From Patescibacteria group bacterium (GTDB lineage Bacteria; Patescibacteriota; Patescibacteriia; UBA9934), in assembly GCA_041666205.1 (NCBI GenBank), contig JBAYHI010000001.1, positions 90,894 through 154,893 on the forward strand: a DNA stretch of 64,000 nt. Direction: 5' to 3'. Of this stretch, positions 3,901-44,778 are shown piece after piece. The position numbers and the translations under genes are program-made. Under the pieces are notes generated by a model, which made no database searches, was not told where the DNA came from, and was given only the letters and a program-made list of their open reading frames with translations. How positions within the stretch are numbered: the stretch's first letter is position 1; each line of letters opens with the position of its first letter.

Positions 3901-4602
3901 ATGGGATTTGTCATGCGAAAACTGCAATGCCGTGAAGAACGCCTGGGCGATAAGCTCCGGGCGCTTCGTCGTGGCAAGGCAGTGACGCTTGAAATGCTCG
4001 AAACCATGACGCATGTGCAAAAGCGCTATTTGTATGCGCTCGAGCATGGCGCCTACGAAGCGCTTCCAGAGCCACTCTATACGCGCAACTTCATTCGATC
4101 CTATGCCCAAGCACTCCACGCCGACGAAGCGTATTTTCTAGAATTATTTGATGAAGAGAATGGCGTTTGCGATTGCGTTTCGCATTTACGCACGCCACTC
4201 CAGCGATTACACCTTATTAAACTCTACGTTTGGAATCGATTTGTAAAATTTGGCATGCTCGCCTTCGTTGCATTGGGGCTTGTAAGCTATTTGGGCTGGC
4301 AGGTGCAATCCATTATTGCGCCACCCGACATCATTCTCCTCTCGCCACTCAATGATTCCATGACGTCTTCTGCGGTTGTGACGGTTGAAGGATATGTTGA
4401 AAAAGAAACCACGGTTTACGTAAACGGCGCTCAGGTGCCGGTCGCAAGCGATCAAACATTTCAAACCGACATTGATTTATCAAAAGGGTTAAACGTCATT
4501 TCGATCGAAGCAGAACGTCGATATTCAAAGAAAGCGAGTATTTCGCGCAATGTTGTTTTTTATCCGGAAAACATTCCACAAGTATCCTTTATTTCTAACT
4601 AA
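3901..4602 (+). CDS. RodZ-like HTH (XRE-type) membrane protein
   Basis: N-terminal HTH (LRALRRGKAVTLEMLETMTHVQKRYLYALE), a central TM segment and a C-terminal domain, the architecture of RodZ/DUF4115 proteins. The start may be 3913. Confidence 0.5.
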   Translation: MGFVMRKLQCREERLGDKLRALRRGKAVTLEMLETMTHVQKRYLYALEHGAYEALPEPLYTRNFIRSYAQALHADEAYFLELFDEENGVCDCVSHLRTPLQRLHLIKLYVWNRFVKFGMLAFVALGLVSYLGWQVQSIIAPPDIILLSPLNDSMTSSAVVTVEGYVEKETTVYVNGAQVPVASDQTFQTDIDLSKGLNVISIEAERRYSKKASISRNVVFYPENIPQVSFISN

Positions 4603-21593: not shown

Positions 21594-23095
21594 GAAAGGA
21601 GGTAATCCATCCACAGCTTCCGCTACGGATGCCTTGTTACGACTTCGTCCCTATTGCTGGTTTTGCCTTCCGCCGCTCTACAGCGACGTTCGGGCACCAC
21701 CAACTCTCTTGACGTGACGGGCGGTGAGTACAAGACCTGAGAACGTATTCAAGGTGGCGTTATGATCCACCTTTACTAGCGATTCCAACTTCATGGAGTC
21801 GAGTTTCAGACTCCAATCCGAACTGAGATTGGTTTTGTGAGATTTGCTCCGCCTCGCGGCTTGGCTTCCCATTGTACCAACCATTGTACCATGCGTGTCG
21901 CCCTGGACGTAAGGGCCACGCTGATTTGACGTCATCCCCTCCTTCCTCCTTCTTGCGAAGGCAGTCTCCCGTGAAAATAATAACACAGGACAGGGGTTGC
22001 GCTCGTTACCCCACTTAAGGGTACACCTCACGGCACGAGCTGACGACAACCGTGCAGCACCTATCTAGCACCCTCGAAGGAGCCTTACTTTCATAAGGTT
22101 AGCAGCTAGTAGTTGAGCCCAGGTGAGGTTTCTCGTGTATCATCGAATTAAACCGCATGGTCCACCGCTTGTGCAGGTCCCCGTCTATTCCTTTGAGTTT
22201 TAACCTTGCGGTCGTACTTCCCAGGCGGAGTGCTTAACGCGTTAGCTTGTTTAAGCGGCACCAAGAGGGTCGATACTCTTGATACCTAGCACTCATCGTT
22301 TACGGCATGGACTACTGGGGTATCTAATCCCATTCGCTACCCATGCTTTCGTACAACAGTGTCAGGAACATTCTAGTTGGCTGCTTTCGCATTTGGTGTT
22401 CTACCTAATCTTAACGGATTTAACCCCTACACTAGGCATTCCGCCAACCTCTCTTGTCCTCGAGTCTTGCAGTATCACCCGCAGCCTCCAGGTTGAGCCT
22501 GAAGATTTAACGAATGACTTACAAAACCACCTACGTACTCTTTACGCCCAATAAATCCGGTCAACGCTCGGGGTCTCTGTATTACCGCTGCTGCTGGCAC
22601 AGAGTTAGCAACCCCTTTCTTCTAAGGTACCGTCATTAATTCGTCCCTTAGGACAGTCGTTTACGACCCGAAGGCCTTCATCCGACACGCGGCATCGCTC
22701 CGTCACACTTTCGTGCATTGCGGAATATTCTTGACTGCAGCCTCCCGTAGGAGTCTGGGCAGTATCTCAGTCCCAGTGAGCCGGGTCACGCTCTCACGCC
22801 CGGTATCCGTCATAGCCTTGGTGAGCCATTACCTCACCAACTAGCTGATAGAACATAGGCCCTTCCCGAACCGATAAATCTTTCAATGAGAATGACTTTC
22901 GTCCCCTCATCAGTATCGCGTATTAGCCCACGTTTCCATGGGTTATTCGCGAGTTCAGGGTAGGTTACCAATGCGTTACTCTCCCGTTTGCCACTAACAT
23001 CAGTGGAGCAAGCTCCACTAAAATTCGTTCGACTTGCATGCCTTAGACATGCCGCCAGCGTTCGACCTGAGCTAGGATCAAACTCTCATATATAG
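21594..23095 (-). rRNA. rrs: 16S ribosomal RNA
   Basis: The 5' end reads ...GAGAGTTTGATCCTAGCTCAG (reverse complement near 23067-23086), the 3' end ...GGATTACCTCCTTTCT (near 21595), and conserved internal blocks such as GTGCCAGCAGCCGCGGTAATAC are present. Confidence 0.9.
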
Positions 23096-37598: not shown

Positions 37599-37612
37599 AA
37601 ATTCATGATTTT

Positions 37613-37651
37613 CCGTAGGGGCAGGTCGCGACCTGCCCGTACGAAAACGAT
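37613..37651. repeat. family-1 GC-rich palindromic element (CCGTAGGGGCAGGTCGCGACCTGCCCGTACG)
   Basis: A near-perfect 15-bp inverted repeat at the left boundary of GC-rich island D. Confidence 0.65.
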
Positions 37652-37739
37652 TTTCGTTTTCAAAAAAAAAACGACCCCTCCGGCCGAGACGTGGTGTGGC
37701 GGAGGGGCAGGGGGAGGGGCGCCCCGGGAGTGGGCGGAG

Positions 37740-38270
37740 CTACATGCCGGCGTTGCCCAGGGGGCCGAAGGGAATCGGATCGGTCGCGAAGGCTGGCGGG
37801 CGAAGCTTGAGCAGGGCGGAGCACAGTGATCGCTCTTCGGTGAGTACCTCGGTTCTTCTCTTCTCCATCGTCTGGATGGCGAGGTCGATGAGTGCCTGGA
37901 TCTTGTTGCCGAAGTACCACGAGGTTTCTCCGATCTTCATCACGAAGACGATCTCGTGGTTGTTGTCTCGCTCTGCGACGTAGATGAACTTTTCCTCGTC
38001 CCGTAGACCGCCACGGTAATACGTGACGATCTGTTCGGGCATCACAAGCCTCGCGATGACGGTGAATTTGAAGTAGGTCTTGTCCACGTCAAATTCAGTG
38101 GGGAACATCTCGCTGAGAGGCAGAGACACAGGTCCTCCAATATCCAGCAATTGCCGGAACGGTGGTGAACGGTAGGCGGAAATGGGGAATTGGTCAAGGT
38201 CTTGAGGTGCGTGAACAAAAACTCCCCATATTCGCACCGTCTTTTCAATTCTTGGAGAGAGCCAAGTCAT
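37740..38270 (-). CDS. hypothetical protein D1 (176 aa), GC-rich island D
   Basis: A long ORF with GC-rich codon usage, last gene of a co-oriented run; no recognisable motif. Confidence 0.45.
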   Translation of the reverse strand: MTWLSPRIEKTVRIWGVFVHAPQDLDQFPISAYRSPPFRQLLDIGGPVSLPLSEMFPTEFDVDKTYFKFTVIARLVMPEQIVTYYRGGLRDEEKFIYVAERDNNHEIVFVMKIGETSWYFGNKIQALIDLAIQTMEKRRTEVLTEERSLCSALLKLRPPAFATDPIPFGPLGNAGM

Positions 38271-38331
38271 GAATAAACGGCACGAATGTGGGGAGTTTGA
38301 TTTTGCAGGGAAGCGAGCGCTCGAAGAATGG

Positions 38332-38610
38332 TTAGTTCTCGAGCACTCGCCAGAAGATCGCGTCGACGATCTCGGTGACCGGACCGCCCTCGTATTCGGA
38401 GAGGTGGTCGATTTCCGAGAGAAGGCGGAATTCGATCTCCGCGCCGTTTTCCTCGATGAGGATTAGGCACGAGAGACTAATCACCTCGCGATCGTCGAGC
38501 AGATACCCTGCGCCGCAAGCGCAGGAATGCCGGTACTCGTTCCCGTACTGCTTGGGGAGCCGAAGCTCCCCGTGGCAAAACGGGCAAACGAACGGGGGCC
38601 ACTCGGGCAT
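38332..38610 (-). CDS. hypothetical small zinc-ribbon protein D2 (about 92 aa)
   Basis: ATG at 38610 preceded by GGAGGATCCC (SD); CPFCHGE...HSCACG gives a CxxC...CxC candidate zinc ribbon. Confidence 0.5.
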   Translation of the reverse strand: MPEWPPFVCPFCHGELRLPKQYGNEYRHSCACGAGYLLDDREVISLSCLILIEENGAEIEFRLLSEIDHLSEYEGGPVTEIVDAIFWRVLEN

Positions 38611-38752
38611 GGGATCCTCCGAATTTTTAACTCTCAAGACCTACGATTGCTCGCGGGTCTATTCGAGTCCCGGATGTTTAGTACATCCGGGGAGACGACC
38701 TCCAAAGTTGAAGGATTTTGCCACAGATCGCTGTGGCCCGGTTTCGGTGGGG

Positions 38753-39298
38753 CTAGAAGTCGTTGTCGCCGTCTTCCTCCTCGACCGTGTGGCGGTGGAT
38801 GACCACGACCTCGTCGGGATCGCATCCCTCGCCACACTCCACCGGGGTTTCTTCCTGCTCCTCAGTGAGCGGGAATTCCCTTTGGATGCGTTCGGAGTCG
38901 ATGCCAGCGGCCTCGGCGCGGTCTCGCGCGGAGGAGATCGCATGCCACGGGCCGGCGTCGATCTCGACCTCGAGTTGCATGCTGGAATTTTGGGGCTTGC
39001 ACCACACCAACCGTGCTTTCGACGATCCGCCCCCGTATTCGACATAGTAGTATCCCGGACCCTTCCACACGAATTCGATGGGGGCAGGGCCGTGCTGGGG
39101 GTCGAAGTTATCCTCGTCGGCCTCAGCTGCTTCGAACGCCGTCTCGACGGCGACGAGGATCGAGCACGGGTCCACCTCGGTGAGCATGAAGTGCTTGGGG
39201 GCGAGGCCCCCGAAGCGACCGGCCGCGGCCTTGAATGCCACAACCGCTTCAGTGAGCTGCTCGACGCCATAAACCACCCGCAGAATTTTCTGGAACAT
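38753..39298 (-). CDS. hypothetical acidic protein D3 (181 aa)
   Basis: ATG at 39298 preceded by AAGGAGAT (SD); the acidic C-terminus contains ECGEGCDPDE. The longer overlapping Ser/Arg-rich ORFs on this and the other strand look like GC-driven artifacts. Confidence 0.5.
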   Translation of the reverse strand: MFQKILRVVYGVEQLTEAVVAFKAAAGRFGGLAPKHFMLTEVDPCSILVAVETAFEAAEADEDNFDPQHGPAPIEFVWKGPGYYYVEYGGGSSKARLVWCKPQNSSMQLEVEIDAGPWHAISSARDRAEAAGIDSERIQREFPLTEEQEETPVECGEGCDPDEVVVIHRHTVEEEDGDNDF

Positions 39299-39397
39299 CT
39301 CGATCTCCTTCGAACTCCCATTTTTTTATCCGCTGGGATAGCGGGTTGCTGGATCTCTTGCCTTTGCTCGCTCCGACCCCTCTGGTCGGTTTACAGG

Positions 39398-39451
39398 CAT
39401 CGGCTTGAAAGTCCCACCGCAATCCTTGATTGAATCAAGGACTCTGGTGGG
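39398..39451 (-). promoter_or_regulatory. conserved intergenic element copy 1 (CATYGGCTTGAAAGTCCCAYC...TCTGGTGGG) containing the perfect 17-bp palindrome CCTTGATTGAATCAAGG
   Basis: It shares both ends with the copy at 39986-40042. The palindrome at 39424-39441 sits about 100 nt upstream of D3. Confidence 0.45.
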
Positions 39452-39492
39452 CGGGAAGACGATCGGTCTGCCTTCCCAAGAAGTTGTGCGAC

Positions 39493-39924
39493 TCAGTTGC
39501 AGTCGCTATCGTTCCAGTCGACGCGACCATCACAGTCGTCGTCGATTTGGTTACTGCAATACTCACTTTCTGGACCACCCGGGCGGGTGGTCGCATCGTT
39601 GTCGTTGCAGTCGTCGTCGTTGGCGACGTACCCGATCGGCTGCTCGCACGACTCGAAATCGTGTCGCTGGTCCCCGAAGTCGTCGTTGTCCAAATCGCGG
39701 AACCAGGTTTCTGCGTCGACCGCGTCGTTTTCGTCGATGTTGTCGTCGCAGTCGTTGTCGATTCCGTCGCAGTACTCGTCCGCGTCGGGGTAGACGTCGA
39801 CATCCTCGTCGTCGCAGTCGCCGTCGATCACTGCGTACCCGTCACCGTCGAAATCGGCATATTCCGGGGGCAGTTCCGTGCAAGCGGACAGAGCGAGGAA
39901 CAGGGCGATGATGTTACGGTACAT
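39493..39924 (-). CDS. secreted lipoprotein D4 with Asp/Cys-rich calcium-binding-type repeats (thrombospondin-type-3-like DxDxDGxxDxxD / DCDD motifs)
   Basis: Signal peptide with lipobox LSAC, then repeated DGDGYAVIDGDCDDEDVD, DGIDNDCDDNIDEND and NDDDCNDND blocks. Confidence 0.55.
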   Translation of the reverse strand: MYRNIIALFLALSACTELPPEYADFDGDGYAVIDGDCDDEDVDVYPDADEYCDGIDNDCDDNIDENDAVDAETWFRDLDNDDFGDQRHDFESCEQPIGYVANDDDCNDNDATTRPGGPESEYCSNQIDDDCDGRVDWNDSDCN

Positions 39925-39985
39925 GGCTTCTCCTGAAAGCGGATCTTTCGCTTCTGCTCATTCCGACCGATATGGCCGAAGAAAG

Positions 39986-40042
39986 CATTGGCTTGAAAGT
40001 CCCATCACATGACTCGAACATGCGTTCAAGTAATCTGGTGGG
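39986..40042 (-). promoter_or_regulatory. conserved intergenic element copy 2, with the imperfect palindrome TTGAACGCATGTTCGA
   Basis: Same flanks as copy 1 (GGCTTGAAAGTCCCA and TCTGGTGGG), about 60 nt upstream of D4. Confidence 0.45.
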
Positions 40043-40121: not shown

Positions 40122-40409
40122 CTAGAGCTCGATCGCGTAGGTCGAGAACGCGTTCCGCATCCCGAGGTTGAAGTCCTCCGGGACCGGGACGCGGGGCAGG
40201 TTGGTCTGGGCCTCGATGACCCGCACCTTCTCCTCACCCCAGACGTGGATGTAGAGCTCGGGCGTCTGGGTCTCGTAGAGCCGCTCGACGCGGGCGCGTT
40301 CTGCTGCCTCGTCGGCCGTTGGCCTGCGGTACACGCTGTGACACGGCTCATTGCCATTGAAGAATTGGATGACGTAGATGGTCTTGGGGGTCTGGGTCGT
40401 CTCTTCCAC
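40122..40409 (-). CDS. hypothetical protein D5 (95 aa, GTG start)
   Basis: GTG at 40409 preceded by AGGAGAGACC (SD); first gene after the upstream promoter/RNA unit. Confidence 0.4.
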   Translation of the reverse strand: MEETTQTPKTIYVIQFFNGNEPCHSVYRRPTADEAAERARVERLYETQTPELYIHVWGEEKVRVIEAQTNLPRVPVPEDFNLGMRNAFSTYAIEL

Positions 40410-40561
40410 GGTCTCTCCTGGCCGTCCAATGCATGGATCGGCTGAAGGGTCTTCCGACTACGAATCAAGAGCGGAGCGCTCAAGACCCAGTCGGAGAACT
40501 GAACGCTCCATTTTGCGAGCGTCGTCGATGCGATGAATGAATCATCGGTTCGCGACGCTTA

Positions 40562-40777
40562 CAAAAAACAGAGCTTTTCCTTATTCTTTGAAAGAAAGAG
40601 GAAAAACTCTGTTTTTCGAGTATCAAACTCGAAATGACCAACTGGGAATTGCTTCCCTTATTGATCTGCCTTGTCACCCCAGGCTCGGGCTCTCTCTTAG
40701 GACTAATGGATTCTACCGGACGTTTCGTGTTTCTTTTAAGCAGTGAATCAACCGTAACTTTCTCTCATCTCAACCAC
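40562..40777 (-). ncRNA. candidate ~216-nt RNA or regulated leader upstream of island D
   Basis: Starts about 7 nt after the TATAGT of the promoter at 40784-40812 and ends in a 15-bp-stem intrinsic terminator (AACAGAGUUUUUCCU...AGGAAAAGCUCUGUU plus U6, plus-strand 40561-40625). It contains the GNRA-capped hairpin GGGAAGCAAUUCCC and no ORF with an SD. Confidence 0.4.
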
Positions 40778-40783
40778 GCATAT

Positions 40784-40812
40784 ACTATACCATAATTTGG
40801 AGCTTTTGTCAA
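40784..40812 (-). promoter_or_regulatory. consensus-like sigma70 promoter (TTGACA-17-TATAGT) between tRNA-Glu and island D
   Basis: On the minus strand, TTGACA is the reverse complement of 40807-40812 and TATAGT of 40784-40789; AT-rich UP-like sequence lies upstream. Confidence 0.5.
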
Positions 40813-40975
40813 CCGTAGAATTTGGCTAAAAGCCTTATTTTAAGCCAAATTTTTAGGTTTTTGGCTAACTTTTGAGGGCGAAAAAGGGCCGGGAATCCGA
40901 ACCCCTATCAATCCGGGTTCGATTCCAGATACGAACAATCCCTCATAGCTCCAGCTTTGCTGGAGCGACGAGGGA

Positions 40976-41158: not shown

Positions 41159-42583
41159 CTAGCGCGAAGTGACGAGGTCATTCCGGCGGTAGACGCGGAA
41201 CGCGTCGTTGTCGAACGACTCCATGGTGTAGTGATCCTGGAGCCACTCGGCGAACTCCGGCCAGGCCTTGAACTTATCGTATCCGCGAGGATCGCTCGCT
41301 TTCGCGGTTACGAAGTAGTCCGGTGGACGCAGTTGCACTTCCGAAAAGAATCGGTCGCGCATGCCACGTCTTGTTTTGGAATCCGATCCCATGAAGAGAC
41401 ACAGGTCGTACTGCATCCCTGTCGCAGGAAGTCTTCCTGTGCGGAACAGCGCGTTTGGCACGTCATCGACGAATGCCAACGGCTGGATCCGCGCGTCGCG
41501 TGGGAGTTTCTCGATCACTCCCATGAGAGACGGCGTTGCGGGATACGCTTCCTCAAGGGCGCGCACATGCGCTTCGTCGCTTGGCACGAAGTACATGACG
41601 GGCCAGGTGAGCGCAAGCCCCACCGCGATCATTCTCACCCCAATCCATTCGAGGCGTTGCGCTGTTTCCATGAGCGCGAGCGATCCGAATGCGACCAGAG
41701 GAATGAAGTGGTAGGGGAACCCTTTATTTTGCGCCACCACGTGGACGATTCCGAGAAGTGCCATGGACCACATCACGTTATGGCGTGATGGCGACCGAAT
41801 GAGCGCGAGCGTACTGACGAGCAGCACGAGCGCCATGAAGGTGAACCGCATCCACATGGGGGTGGACGGCATGAAGCCGTAGGAATGATCCCCGGCGTAG
41901 AACGGCGTCAGCTCAGTCATGGTCCACACGAAGTCGGGCATCACCTGGATTTTTTCAATCCATGCGATGGTGACAACCCAGGGGATGGCAATTCCTGGCA
42001 GCACCCACCACCGTTTTGCTTGTTTGGTCGTGAGCGCAAAGATGGCAAGCGGAACTGCAAACAGGATGGCGTTCACCTTCACGGTTGACGCGTATCCAAT
42101 CAGCAGCCCCGCCATTACCATGCTCGTTTTTCCACGTTTGGCGAAGATGAGCGTAGCGGCGCCAAGGAAGCAGCAGACCACCACGAGCTCGCGCTGCATG
42201 GTGCCGTTGGCTCCAAGAAACATGAGGTGGAACCCGACAAAGCACAGTGCGGGCGCCAGTCGGAAGTTATTTCCGGCCCCAAGTCTCCACAGAAGCCAGG
42301 CGCAGAGCGCAAGCACGAGTTGATCCGCGATGCGGAAACACTCGTCCGCCAGACTCACGGTGAGAAGTGCCGCGAAATAGAGGATGGTCCCGGGCTGGTT
42401 GAACTCGATGAGGACCTTGTAGGGCGTCATGCCCTGCATGATCCACCAAGTGGAACAGCGGAGTTTCTGCGTATCCGGTCCAATACTCATGTGAATGCTT
42501 GCGATGGAGATGGCCCCGAGGAGCCCAATCACCAACGCTGCAAGAATCGTCCACCAATTCAGAAACCGCTTATTGGAATTCAC
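41159..42583 (-). CDS. polytopic membrane glycosyltransferase (GT-C fold, ArnT/PMT-like family 39 type)
   Basis: 474 aa with about 11 TM segments, an early loop carrying an acidic pair (LADE) and a large C-terminal soluble domain. GC-rich codon usage. This is a family-level guess only. Confidence 0.5.
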   Translation of the reverse strand: MNSNKRFLNWWTILAALVIGLLGAISIASIHMSIGPDTQKLRCSTWWIMQGMTPYKVLIEFNQPGTILYFAALLTVSLADECFRIADQLVLALCAWLLWRLGAGNNFRLAPALCFVGFHLMFLGANGTMQRELVVVCCFLGAATLIFAKRGKTSMVMAGLLIGYASTVKVNAILFAVPLAIFALTTKQAKRWWVLPGIAIPWVVTIAWIEKIQVMPDFVWTMTELTPFYAGDHSYGFMPSTPMWMRFTFMALVLLVSTLALIRSPSRHNVMWSMALLGIVHVVAQNKGFPYHFIPLVAFGSLALMETAQRLEWIGVRMIAVGLALTWPVMYFVPSDEAHVRALEEAYPATPSLMGVIEKLPRDARIQPLAFVDDVPNALFRTGRLPATGMQYDLCLFMGSDSKTRRGMRDRFFSEVQLRPPDYFVTAKASDPRGYDKFKAWPEFAEWLQDHYTMESFDNDAFRVYRRNDLVTSR

Positions 42584-43507: not shown

Positions 43508-43558
43508 CGTAGGGGTCGGGTCTCCCGACCCGGCGGGCGAGGGAACCTCGCCCGTACG
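43508..43558. repeat. family-1 GC-rich palindromic element (compound, two hairpins)
   Basis: CGTAGGGG-TCGGGTCTCCCGACCC-GGCGGGCGAGGGAACCTCGCCCGTACG, with the further palindrome ACGTTGCCTGCAACGT downstream. Confidence 0.6.
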
Positions 43559-43679
43559 ACGATTCGCCGTAGGGACGTTGCCTGCAACGTAAAATCCTGT
43601 GTCATTGCGAGGACGACCGAAGGGAGGACGAAGCAATCTACTGGCGGAGAGTAAGAATTTTCGCTATTATTGACCGAGT

Positions 43680-44708: not shown

Positions 44709-44767
44709 TCGCCGTACGGGCGGGGTTTCCCCGCCCGATCGGGTCGGGGGACCCGACCCCTACGGCG
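44709..44767. repeat. family-1 GC-rich palindromic element (compound) between tsaD and tsaE
   Basis: CGCCGTACGGGCGGGGTTTCCCCGCCC-GATC-GGGTCGGGGGACCCGACCCCTACGGCG: outer inverted termini with two internal hairpins. Confidence 0.6.
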
Positions 44768-44778
44768 AATCAAGAAGT

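Follow-up and report, generated by a model that had tools for sequence, protein, structure and literature searches.

The window analysed here is a stretch of 64,000 nucleotides (nt) from a Patescibacteria group bacterium (assembly GCA_041666205.1, contig JBAYHI010000001.1, positions 90,894 to 154,893), and the element in question is a short RNA predicted on its minus strand at 40777-40562. Read along that strand, the locus carries a gene for an SPFH/Band_7 protein, one for a 474-amino-acid (aa) PMT_2-like membrane protein, tRNA-Glu(UUC) (41050-40976), the RNA, and five small GC-rich genes. The first of these, p95 (40122-40409, minus strand), encodes an orphan protein of 95 aa; a MopE-like lipoprotein (143 aa), p181, p92 and p129 (181, 92 and 129 aa) follow in that order at 37662-39924 on the same strand, and the cluster is closed by a terminator with a T-run (37686-37672, minus strand), which faces a convergent AI-2E transporter gene. 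The window sequence is also present in an NCBI metagenome-assembled genome (MAG), a JGI contig and a Logan contig (the assemblies derive from SRR6484324 and JGI 3300037810), and its best relatives by tsaD are MAGs labelled 'Patescibacteria group' and Candidatus Uhrbacteria. A first-pass annotation of the window had proposed that a terminated RNA upstream of the five genes is either an independent small RNA (sRNA) or a riboswitch-like attenuator. The finding is larger than that annotation saw, as the RNA is one member of an undescribed family of pseudoknot leaders, which would most likely act as an antitermination-type gate for accessory gene cassettes.

The RNA is delimited by a predicted promoter and a predicted terminator. 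The promoter is of the sigma-70 type (TTGACA-17 nt-TGgTATAGT, 40812-40784, minus strand), with the -35 hexamer TTGACA at 40812-40807 and an extended -10 that ends at 40784; it is called from its match to the consensus (11 of 12 positions) and from its conservation. A match of this quality is reached at five sites only (128 kb, both strands), and the promoter of the RNA is the sole one among them with the TG. The terminator (40614-40566, followed by a U-tract to about 40562, minus strand) consists of 16 bp, a 2x2 internal loop, 5 bp and U6; it has a z-score of -7.6 against shuffles, and its fold energy ranks fourth of the 288 T-run-adjacent hairpins in the window. The near-consensus promoter and the strong terminator that had been noticed earlier are both there, the stem being longer than the 15 bp first given, and with a start near 40777 the length of ~216 nt also holds for these predicted ends. 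The z-score of the whole RNA is -2.9. No conserved open reading frame (ORF) was found in the RNA, in line with the earlier claim that it holds none preceded by a Shine-Dalgarno sequence: the sole long internal ORF (40677-40480) runs through the terminator, and its frame is disrupted by 1-nt indels in L002, the ortholog described below. The RNA is therefore non-coding and under selection, and we rejected a protein-coding reading. A plus-strand transcript was also rejected: promoter conservation is seen on the minus strand, and the U-G pairs of the terminator, which favour the minus-strand transcript, would turn into A-C.

The RNA has an ortholog at L002:3461-3242 in the closest genome in GTDB (L002; tsaD 77% identical), and in a tsaD synteny search of 80 GTDB representatives this was the only genome with the RNA near tsaD. 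The two sequences are 82-86% identical over the RNA (from the -10 to the U-tract), 93% identical in the 3' domain and 100% identical over a block of 42 nt, and identity falls to 37% 5' of the -35 and to 43% 3' of the U-tract, where the flanks are unalignable; in the spacer at 40410-40561, only a 13-nt word aligns with L002. All 52 pairs of the two-sequence consensus fold are kept in L002, with two compensatory, three wobble and no disruptive changes. Anatomy, conservation and covariation, all read from sequence, thus mark the element as a functional structured RNA. The upstream neighbours of the L002 copy differ from those in the window: it lies 3.6 kb from tRNA-Glu, and this interval codes for a GNAT-domain protein and for a TrmB regulator that is divergent from the RNA and has no counterpart in the window.

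We found no Rfam family for the RNA among the 4227 models of Rfam 15, which include 6S, the signal recognition particle (SRP) RNA, T-box and all riboswitch classes, even at E<=10. The whole window was scanned in gathering mode, and the region together with loci L087 and L093 in permissive mode, with no match for the RNA family in either; near the RNA these passes returned tRNA-Glu only, the other matches being microRNA or Y-RNA-like hairpins on the terminator at about one third of the gathering score. The predicted structure is conserved and covaries in relatives. The RNA has no paralog in the window by blastn, nhmmer or covariance model, and we found no account of such an RNA in Patescibacteria in the literature. 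More divergent copies, at other genomic positions, were found with a covariance model built from the window and L002 and run on loci fetched through tsaD homologs. One lies at L087:8495-8316 (25.5 bits), and a single 21-kb locus, L093, holds two, at L093:13117-12851 (23.5 bits, identical in L094 and L095) and L093:4227-4061 (17 bits); the two L093 copies, of which the short one is L093-A and a variant is L093-B, stand before unrelated genes, as expected for a shared regulatory signal. The sample is thus five copies from four independent loci in four genomes, and on the sequence evidence the RNA belongs to a small, previously undescribed RNA family of Patescibacteria. A covariance model of the pseudoknot module (see below) alone found no additional member in the collected loci, and no copy was found in IMG/VR with two core patterns or in phage and plasmid collections by blastn; a search of genome contigs with the adjacent 474-aa protein returned no relatives. 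A weak covariance-model match in L011 was rejected as a generic hairpin with a terminator, and an exact 20-mer of the invariant core in L082, the sole such match in JGI metagenome contigs, was put down to chance, the contig being unrelated and poor in ORFs.

The members share a common plan: AT-rich DNA with phased A-tracts, a promoter of the form TTGACA-17-TGnTATA(G/T)T, a purine tract, a pseudoknot, up to two hairpins, and the terminator. The core is the H-type pseudoknot, which reads CCC-GA-GCCU-G-GGG-UGACA-AGGC in the window (40668-40689, minus strand) and follows the plan CCC-NN-stem-N-GGG-NNACA-stem in the family, the core measuring ~22-33 nt. Its inner stem, P3, is GCCU:AGGC in the window and L002, UAUUCC:GGAAUA in L087, GUCC:GGAC in L093-A and CCAUCC:GGAUGG in L093-B. 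In a four-sequence alignment, three of the four aligned P3 pairs change on both sides, and its cells are paired in 100% of cases, against at most 68% when the partners are slid. The pseudoknot stem CCC:GGG becomes CCGC:GCGG in L093-B, both sides together. This covariation of P3 and of the pseudoknot stem, of the kind found in a conserved riboswitch aptamer, was seen in four to five sequences. P3 is also the unconstrained minimum-free-energy hairpin in the window and in L087. The motif AAGGCAGAU, singled out in the first-pass annotation, is present as the 3' strand and 3' junction of the pseudoknot hairpin, within the invariant 42-nt block shared with L002. An earlier RNAalifold model from two sequences, with a CCCG/UGGG hairpin and a long-range GUYAC/GUGAC helix, was replaced by the pseudoknot after L087 and L093 were added. 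Directly 5' of the pseudoknot lies the purine tract (AAGAGAGAG, 40690-40698, minus strand), for which the family shows AAGAGAGAG, GGAGAGA, GAAGAGGGAG and GGGGAGAGAG. Each member has at least eight purines in ten positions, a level that no chance descriptor hit and no shuffle reaches; when 3 Mb of loci were searched, the pseudoknot descriptor combined with a purine-rich 5' tract picked out family members alone, and nothing in five shuffles.

The 5' domain and the hairpins between pseudoknot and terminator are optional. A 5' conserved segment, GAGAUGAGAGAAAG (40758-40771, minus strand), appears as AAGAUGAAAAA in L087 and AAGAUGAGAA in L093-B and is missing from the short copy L093-A; the optional 5' domain of the family shares AAGAUGA(G/A)A. 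Hairpin H3 (40636-40666, minus strand), capped by a GCAA tetraloop, occurs in the window and L002 only, with one compensatory pair and one wobble change between them. It contains the GNRA-capped hairpin reported earlier (GGGAAGCAAUUCCC, 40657-40644), where a G-C pair has become U-A in L002. Hairpin H4 (UUCGAGU-UUGAU-ACUCGAA, 40615-40633, minus strand) is a predicted fold, with an equivalent directly 5' of the terminator in L087 and L093-A. The distance from the pseudoknot to the terminator is variable, at 53, 54, 18, 20 and 7 nt across the five copies, with zero, one or two optional hairpins in between. The five terminators have the same shape (19-23 bp, U5-6, -24 to -28 kcal/mol) and unrelated sequences; between the window and L002, the terminator shows one compensatory and one wobble change. 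In all five, the apical 5' arm is CU-rich (CCUCUUUCUUUC in the window; CUCUUUC, UCUCUC, CUCUC and UUCUC across the family) and complementary to the purine tract over 5-10 bp (-6.6 to -13.3 kcal/mol).

L002, L087, L093-A and L093-B have all kept the promoter in full: its -35, its spacing, its TG and its -10. Upstream of the promoter in the window, at 40811-40868, lies AT-rich DNA with phased A-tracts and three copies of TTAGCCAAA/TTTGGCTAA, where a 21-nt imperfect inverted repeat abuts the -35. A-tract repeats of the form TGGCTAA/TAGCTAAAA are also present upstream of the homologous promoters in L002 and L087, and, judged from sequence, this DNA could be a curved UP-like element or the site of a common regulator. 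Such repeats, with a phasing of ~10-11 bp, recur just 5' of TTGACA-17-TGnTATAnT promoters in several related genomes, at 40821-40868 in the window, L002:3500-3560 and L087:8530-8600, and also near 7060 in L091, 5660 in L093 and 6010 in L096; some of the promoters that bear them do not drive the RNA family. The strong promoters in L091, L093 (at 5640) and L096 were not taken as family members, as they precede long leaders without the pseudoknot motif.

All five copies are co-oriented with the next ORF, four of them within 46-152 nt of its start, and each start has a Shine-Dalgarno sequence. In the window, 152 nt separate the last U of the terminator from the GTG start of p95 at 40409, in agreement with the ~150 nt first given for the distance to the first gene. 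The gap is ~100 nt in L087 (to a129, 129 aa), 46 nt in L093-A (to a 71-aa membrane protein), 49-65 nt in L093-B (to a 143-aa protein with a weak STIV_B116-like match) and 1083 nt in L002 (to a 69-aa homolog of p95). The absence of promoters was judged by consensus scan only. By this measure, there is no promoter-like site in the gaps between terminator and ORF, including the GC-rich spacer of the window (40410-40561, minus strand), which carries the Shine-Dalgarno sequence AGGAGAG at its 3' end; none on the minus strand of the whole window cluster (40560-37672); and no strong one, with at most 9/12 matches, in the seven-gene cluster of L087 up to its terminator at 3914. The RNA thus lies in the 5' untranslated region of a co-oriented ORF that has no promoter-like site of its own, and in all five copies an intrinsic terminator lies inside this leader. 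In L093-A and L093-B, where a gap of 46-65 nt holds no promoter-like site, the genes therefore appear to depend on read-through.

The first downstream genes are unrelated between loci, except for p95 and its counterpart in L002, which is the sole homolog of p95 among 1.8 billion representatives; a third match in the p95 search, P0125, was discarded as low-complexity. p95 has no family matches, and its AlphaFold2 (AF2) model (pLDDT 76.5) no fold match in the PDB. The genes behind the RNA copies encode orphans, lipoproteins, small membrane proteins and one viral-like DNA-binding protein, and are richer in G+C than the host genomes. A comparison of the island genes, flanking genes covered, with PHROG, Pfam and NCBIfam gave nothing phage- or antiterminator-like. 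The settings of the RNA copies look like islands: related contigs of the L089 type have one gene where L087 has the RNA and seven genes, and the segment of L093-B ends in a large serine recombinase.

Taken with this gene context, the RNA is best read as a cis-acting leader in which termination is conditional and controls the promoterless accessory genes that follow, a reading to which we assign a probability of about 0.5. It is favoured because the RNA constantly stands before promoterless ORFs, because L093 has two copies, and because the gaps in L093 are too short to hold a promoter. Of the two possibilities left by the first-pass annotation, attenuation is thus better supported than an independent sRNA, in view of the co-orientation of all five copies, the short distance to the ORF in four and the lack of an intervening promoter-like site. 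We infer that termination at the leader is conditional, and by analogy this would most likely be achieved by factor-dependent or RNA-mediated antitermination. Since the gap between core and terminator ranges from 7 to 54 nt and holds zero to two optional hairpins, the core probably acts at a distance, like the nut and put sites of phages; nut, put and qut systems act in this manner, over variable distances and on very strong terminators, in DNA that is mobile or accessory, which favours antitermination. In such a scheme, the strong promoter would fire and polymerase would by default stop at the long terminator, releasing the ~216-nt RNA. On a more speculative view of what flips termination, engagement of the core, formed by the GAGAG tract and the CCC/GGG pseudoknot with its GGGNNACA loop, would lead to read-through into p95 and the other four genes. 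Either a factor would be brought to the elongating polymerase by the core, or the core would affect polymerase directly, with no overlapping antiterminator helix; alternatively, the GAGAG tract might capture the CU-rich apical arm first and so forestall the terminator hairpin. The complementarity of purine tract and CU-rich arm could thus keep the hairpin from nucleating, as a competing pairing, or it could merely be compositional.

Several points weigh against a conditional leader. Its 5' end, its 3' end and any read-through are all predicted, and the five copies, four of them independent, come from within 10 kb of tsaD in a few relatives, so that the statistics of context are thin. The U-tract is the exact limit of conservation, which is what a free-standing RNA gene would show, and 1.08 kb of non-coding DNA with repeats separates the L002 copy from its next gene; the GC-rich repeats in this spacer, which resemble repetitive extragenic palindromes (REPs), are found elsewhere in the window too. 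The terminators are much stronger than typical regulated ones, and truncated folds gave no conserved antiterminator helix or mutually exclusive structure. The purine/pyrimidine complementarity involves low-complexity sequence and could reflect composition. Moreover, no antitermination factor (N, Q or a NusG paralog) is found among the neighbouring proteins, and the first downstream genes differ between loci.

The most serious competitor, less probable but of substantial weight, is a free-standing gene for a trans-acting sRNA, with its own strong promoter and a constitutive terminator, which happens to sit at the edge of variable islands or is itself a landmark at which islands accumulate, like tRNA and tmRNA genes, and would give the downstream genes incidental read-through only. 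The promoter and the very strong terminator do delimit the conserved block exactly, the L002 copy has different upstream neighbours and its next gene 1.08 kb off, optional modular hairpins (H3, H4 and the 5' domain) are typical of sRNA evolution, and the adjacent tRNA-Glu, with flanking scars that resemble attachment (att) sites, would make the region an insertion hotspot. This is countered by the co-orientation of every copy with the next ORF, which means that its position is not independent of the downstream gene, by the gaps of 46-65 nt without a promoter-like site in L093-A and L093-B, and by a whole cluster in the window devoid of minus-strand promoter-like sites. In addition, the 3' end of the RNA is not repeated at the island boundary, for which reason the RNA was also dismissed as an integration site, and there is no target complementarity above 14 nt in the 64-kb window, though targets may lie beyond it. 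The sRNA and the conditional leader can coexist, as in attenuation-derived sRNAs.

A bolder form of the conditional leader, which we regard as rather doubtful, is a Patescibacteria-specific pseudoknot antitermination, in which the leader would render polymerase terminator-resistant, either alone (put-like) or with a lineage-specific factor, and so serve as on-switch for promoterless accessory or mobile cassettes. Were it true, these episymbiotic bacteria would use a pseudoknot leader as the common on-switch of cassettes that encode orphan proteins and lipoproteins of the surface, with a terminated by-product of 120-216 nt that might double as an sRNA.

A classical metabolite or ion riboswitch, in which a ligand bound by a pseudoknot aptamer toggles the terminator through a mutually exclusive helix, is unlikely. 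Its attraction lies in a compact H-type pseudoknot, invariant in its loop nucleotides and covarying in its stem, placed in a 5' leader upstream of an intrinsic terminator, a general layout that recalls the preQ1-I, SAM-II, fluoride and guanidine-III classes, and in the fact that every one of the five copies allows the GAGAG tract to pair with the 5' side of the terminator apex. This pairing would, however, leave a basal stem of 15-16 bp intact, and a switching helix would not tolerate an aptamer-terminator distance that ranges over 7-54 nt and takes in entire hairpins. Among the riboswitch models of Rfam there is no match even at E<=10, and the downstream genes have no common function or homology between loci. 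The 'riboswitch-like' part of the earlier proposal finds no support, because the controlled genes are unrelated, the distance between core and terminator varies and no mutually exclusive structure is conserved.

An ordinary cause, such as a divergent housekeeping RNA (6S, SRP, RNase P, tmRNA or T-box), a small protein gene, or a chance promoter and hairpin, is very improbable, even though AAGGCAGAU and GGAAGCA also occur in E. coli 4.5S RNA: nothing in Rfam matches at E<=10 beyond tRNA and spurious microRNA-hairpin hits, the fold has several hairpins and is not a 6S-like rod, the GNRA hairpin lacks the symmetric loop of SRP RNA and is absent from three of five members (structure and Rfam result thus leading us to reject both the SRP and the 6S identity), the internal ORF is broken by the indels in L002, and chance is ruled out by conservation and covariation across four genomes.

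Some further features of the region were noted. In the 3' flank of tRNA-Glu (40885-40975), a hairpin is accompanied by the T-arm in inverted copy (GGAATCGAACCCGGATT) and by a degenerate copy in direct orientation (GGGGTTCGGATTCCCGG), and at L083:6852-7040 the 3' end of the tRNA recurs 170 nt downstream as a perfect direct repeat of 21 nt. From their sequence, these repeats look like att scars, and tRNA-Glu would then be an integration hotspot of the clade. The order without an island is seen in a contig of JGI 3300072015 that carries P0014 (tsaD 67% identical): ClpP, VanW, HSP20, a 233-aa protein, DsbA, AI-2E, a 368-aa protein, a gap of 670 nt, Band_7, TsaD and TsaE, the gap being a candidate place for the ancestral arrangement of tRNA-Glu and the RNA. 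The gene for the PMT_2-like protein (41159-42583) is richer in G+C than the genome, and its product is ~21-22% identical to that of L002:7270-8742, next to an SPFH protein that is 92% identical; the gene is hypervariable or has been replaced, and is probably surface-related. The five island genes have unusually regular spacers of 140-200 nt, reminiscent of cassette junctions. The spacers after p95 (39985-40042) and after the MopE-like gene (39397-39451) have in common a repeat of ~60 nt, made of the hairpin CCCACCAGA..CTTGA..TCAAG..GGTGGG and then ACTTTCAAGCC(A/G)ATGC, and the spacer between p92 and p129 holds a 37-nt imperfect inverted repeat (38219-38298, 78% complementary, 6-nt loop). A GC-rich compound-hairpin repeat of ~58 nt (CGCCGTACGGGCGGGG..CCCCGCCC..GGGTCGGGGGACCCGACCCCTACGGCG), similar to REPs or to miniature inverted-repeat transposable elements, is intergenic on both sides of tsaD (43508-43570 and 44711-44768), with a related palindrome at the end of the island (37610-37647) and copies in the 1.08-kb spacer of L002 (L002:2863-2918). 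A complete 16S rRNA gene lies at 21595-23093 on the minus strand, with tRNA-Ile ~2.5 kb downstream; no 23S or 5S rRNA was found by Rfam in the 64-kb window, and the rRNA genes appear to be unlinked.

Bacteria of the Candidate Phyla Radiation, to which the source of the window belongs, are genetically intractable, their genomes are tiny and few of their regulators can be recognised; to our knowledge, regulatory RNAs have hardly been described in them. A conserved module of promoter, leader and terminator, reused before different island genes, would be among the first lineage-specific gene-control devices in this group, and would show how newly acquired promoterless genes, such as those for lipoproteins and surface proteins, plug into host control. 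The core of ~22-33 nt is small enough for direct in vitro study, and the family gives a handle, as descriptor and covariance model, to map accessory-gene cassettes across Patescibacteria.

Compared with known systems, the family resembles stand-alone sRNAs in that it has its own strong promoter and a U-tailed Rho-independent terminator, measures 120-216 nt, is built with modular hairpins and is phylogenetically restricted; it differs in that it is always upstream of a co-oriented promoterless ORF, and in that its conserved part is a pseudoknot and not a single-stranded seed. With the preQ1-I, SAM-II/V, fluoride and guanidine-III riboswitches it shares a small H-type pseudoknot, of which the loop residues are invariant and the stem covaries, in a 5' leader before an intrinsic terminator. 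Its consensus, however, matches none of these (negative in Rfam), the genes regulated here do not share a function, core and terminator stand at varying distances, and a terminator of 19-23 bp is far stronger than the usual expression platforms. LoaP leaders, EAR, RfaH with ops, the ribonucleic antiterminator (RAT) sites of LicT and SacY, and PyrR have in common with the favoured reading a leader element, ahead of long accessory operons, by which polymerase passes terminators in the presence of a dedicated factor. RAT- and PyrR-type sites overlap the terminator, which the core here does not, ops is a DNA element, unlike the RNA core, and the examined loci yielded no homolog of LoaP or RfaH. 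A close parallel is with the PL/PR nut sites and N of phage lambda, PR'-qut-tR' and Q of lambda, and put of HK022. The present family differs from these in that no N-, Q- or NusG-paralog-like gene was found beside any copy; in that the boxB pentaloop of lambda and the two put stem-loops have in their place an H-type pseudoknot and a purine tract, with no boxA recognised; and in the host, here a Patescibacterium known from sequence alone. As would be the case here, a strong promoter is followed by a promoter-proximal structured RNA and then an efficient terminator, which yields a short default RNA of ~200 nt, and accessory or mobile genes are expressed on read-through only. The default product of lambda PR'-qut-tR' is the '6S' transcript, of 194 nt. 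In Stx phages, the default product is the StxS sRNA, again a short RNA that ends at a terminator (PMC7547250). In the lambda and HK022 leaders, too, the recognition element can lie at a variable distance from the terminator, and several copies per element precede unrelated genes in mobile or island DNA. The variable spacing and the multi-copy use before unrelated genes found here fit this pattern, and an antitermination activity of the nut, put or qut kind would be its counterpart by analogy.

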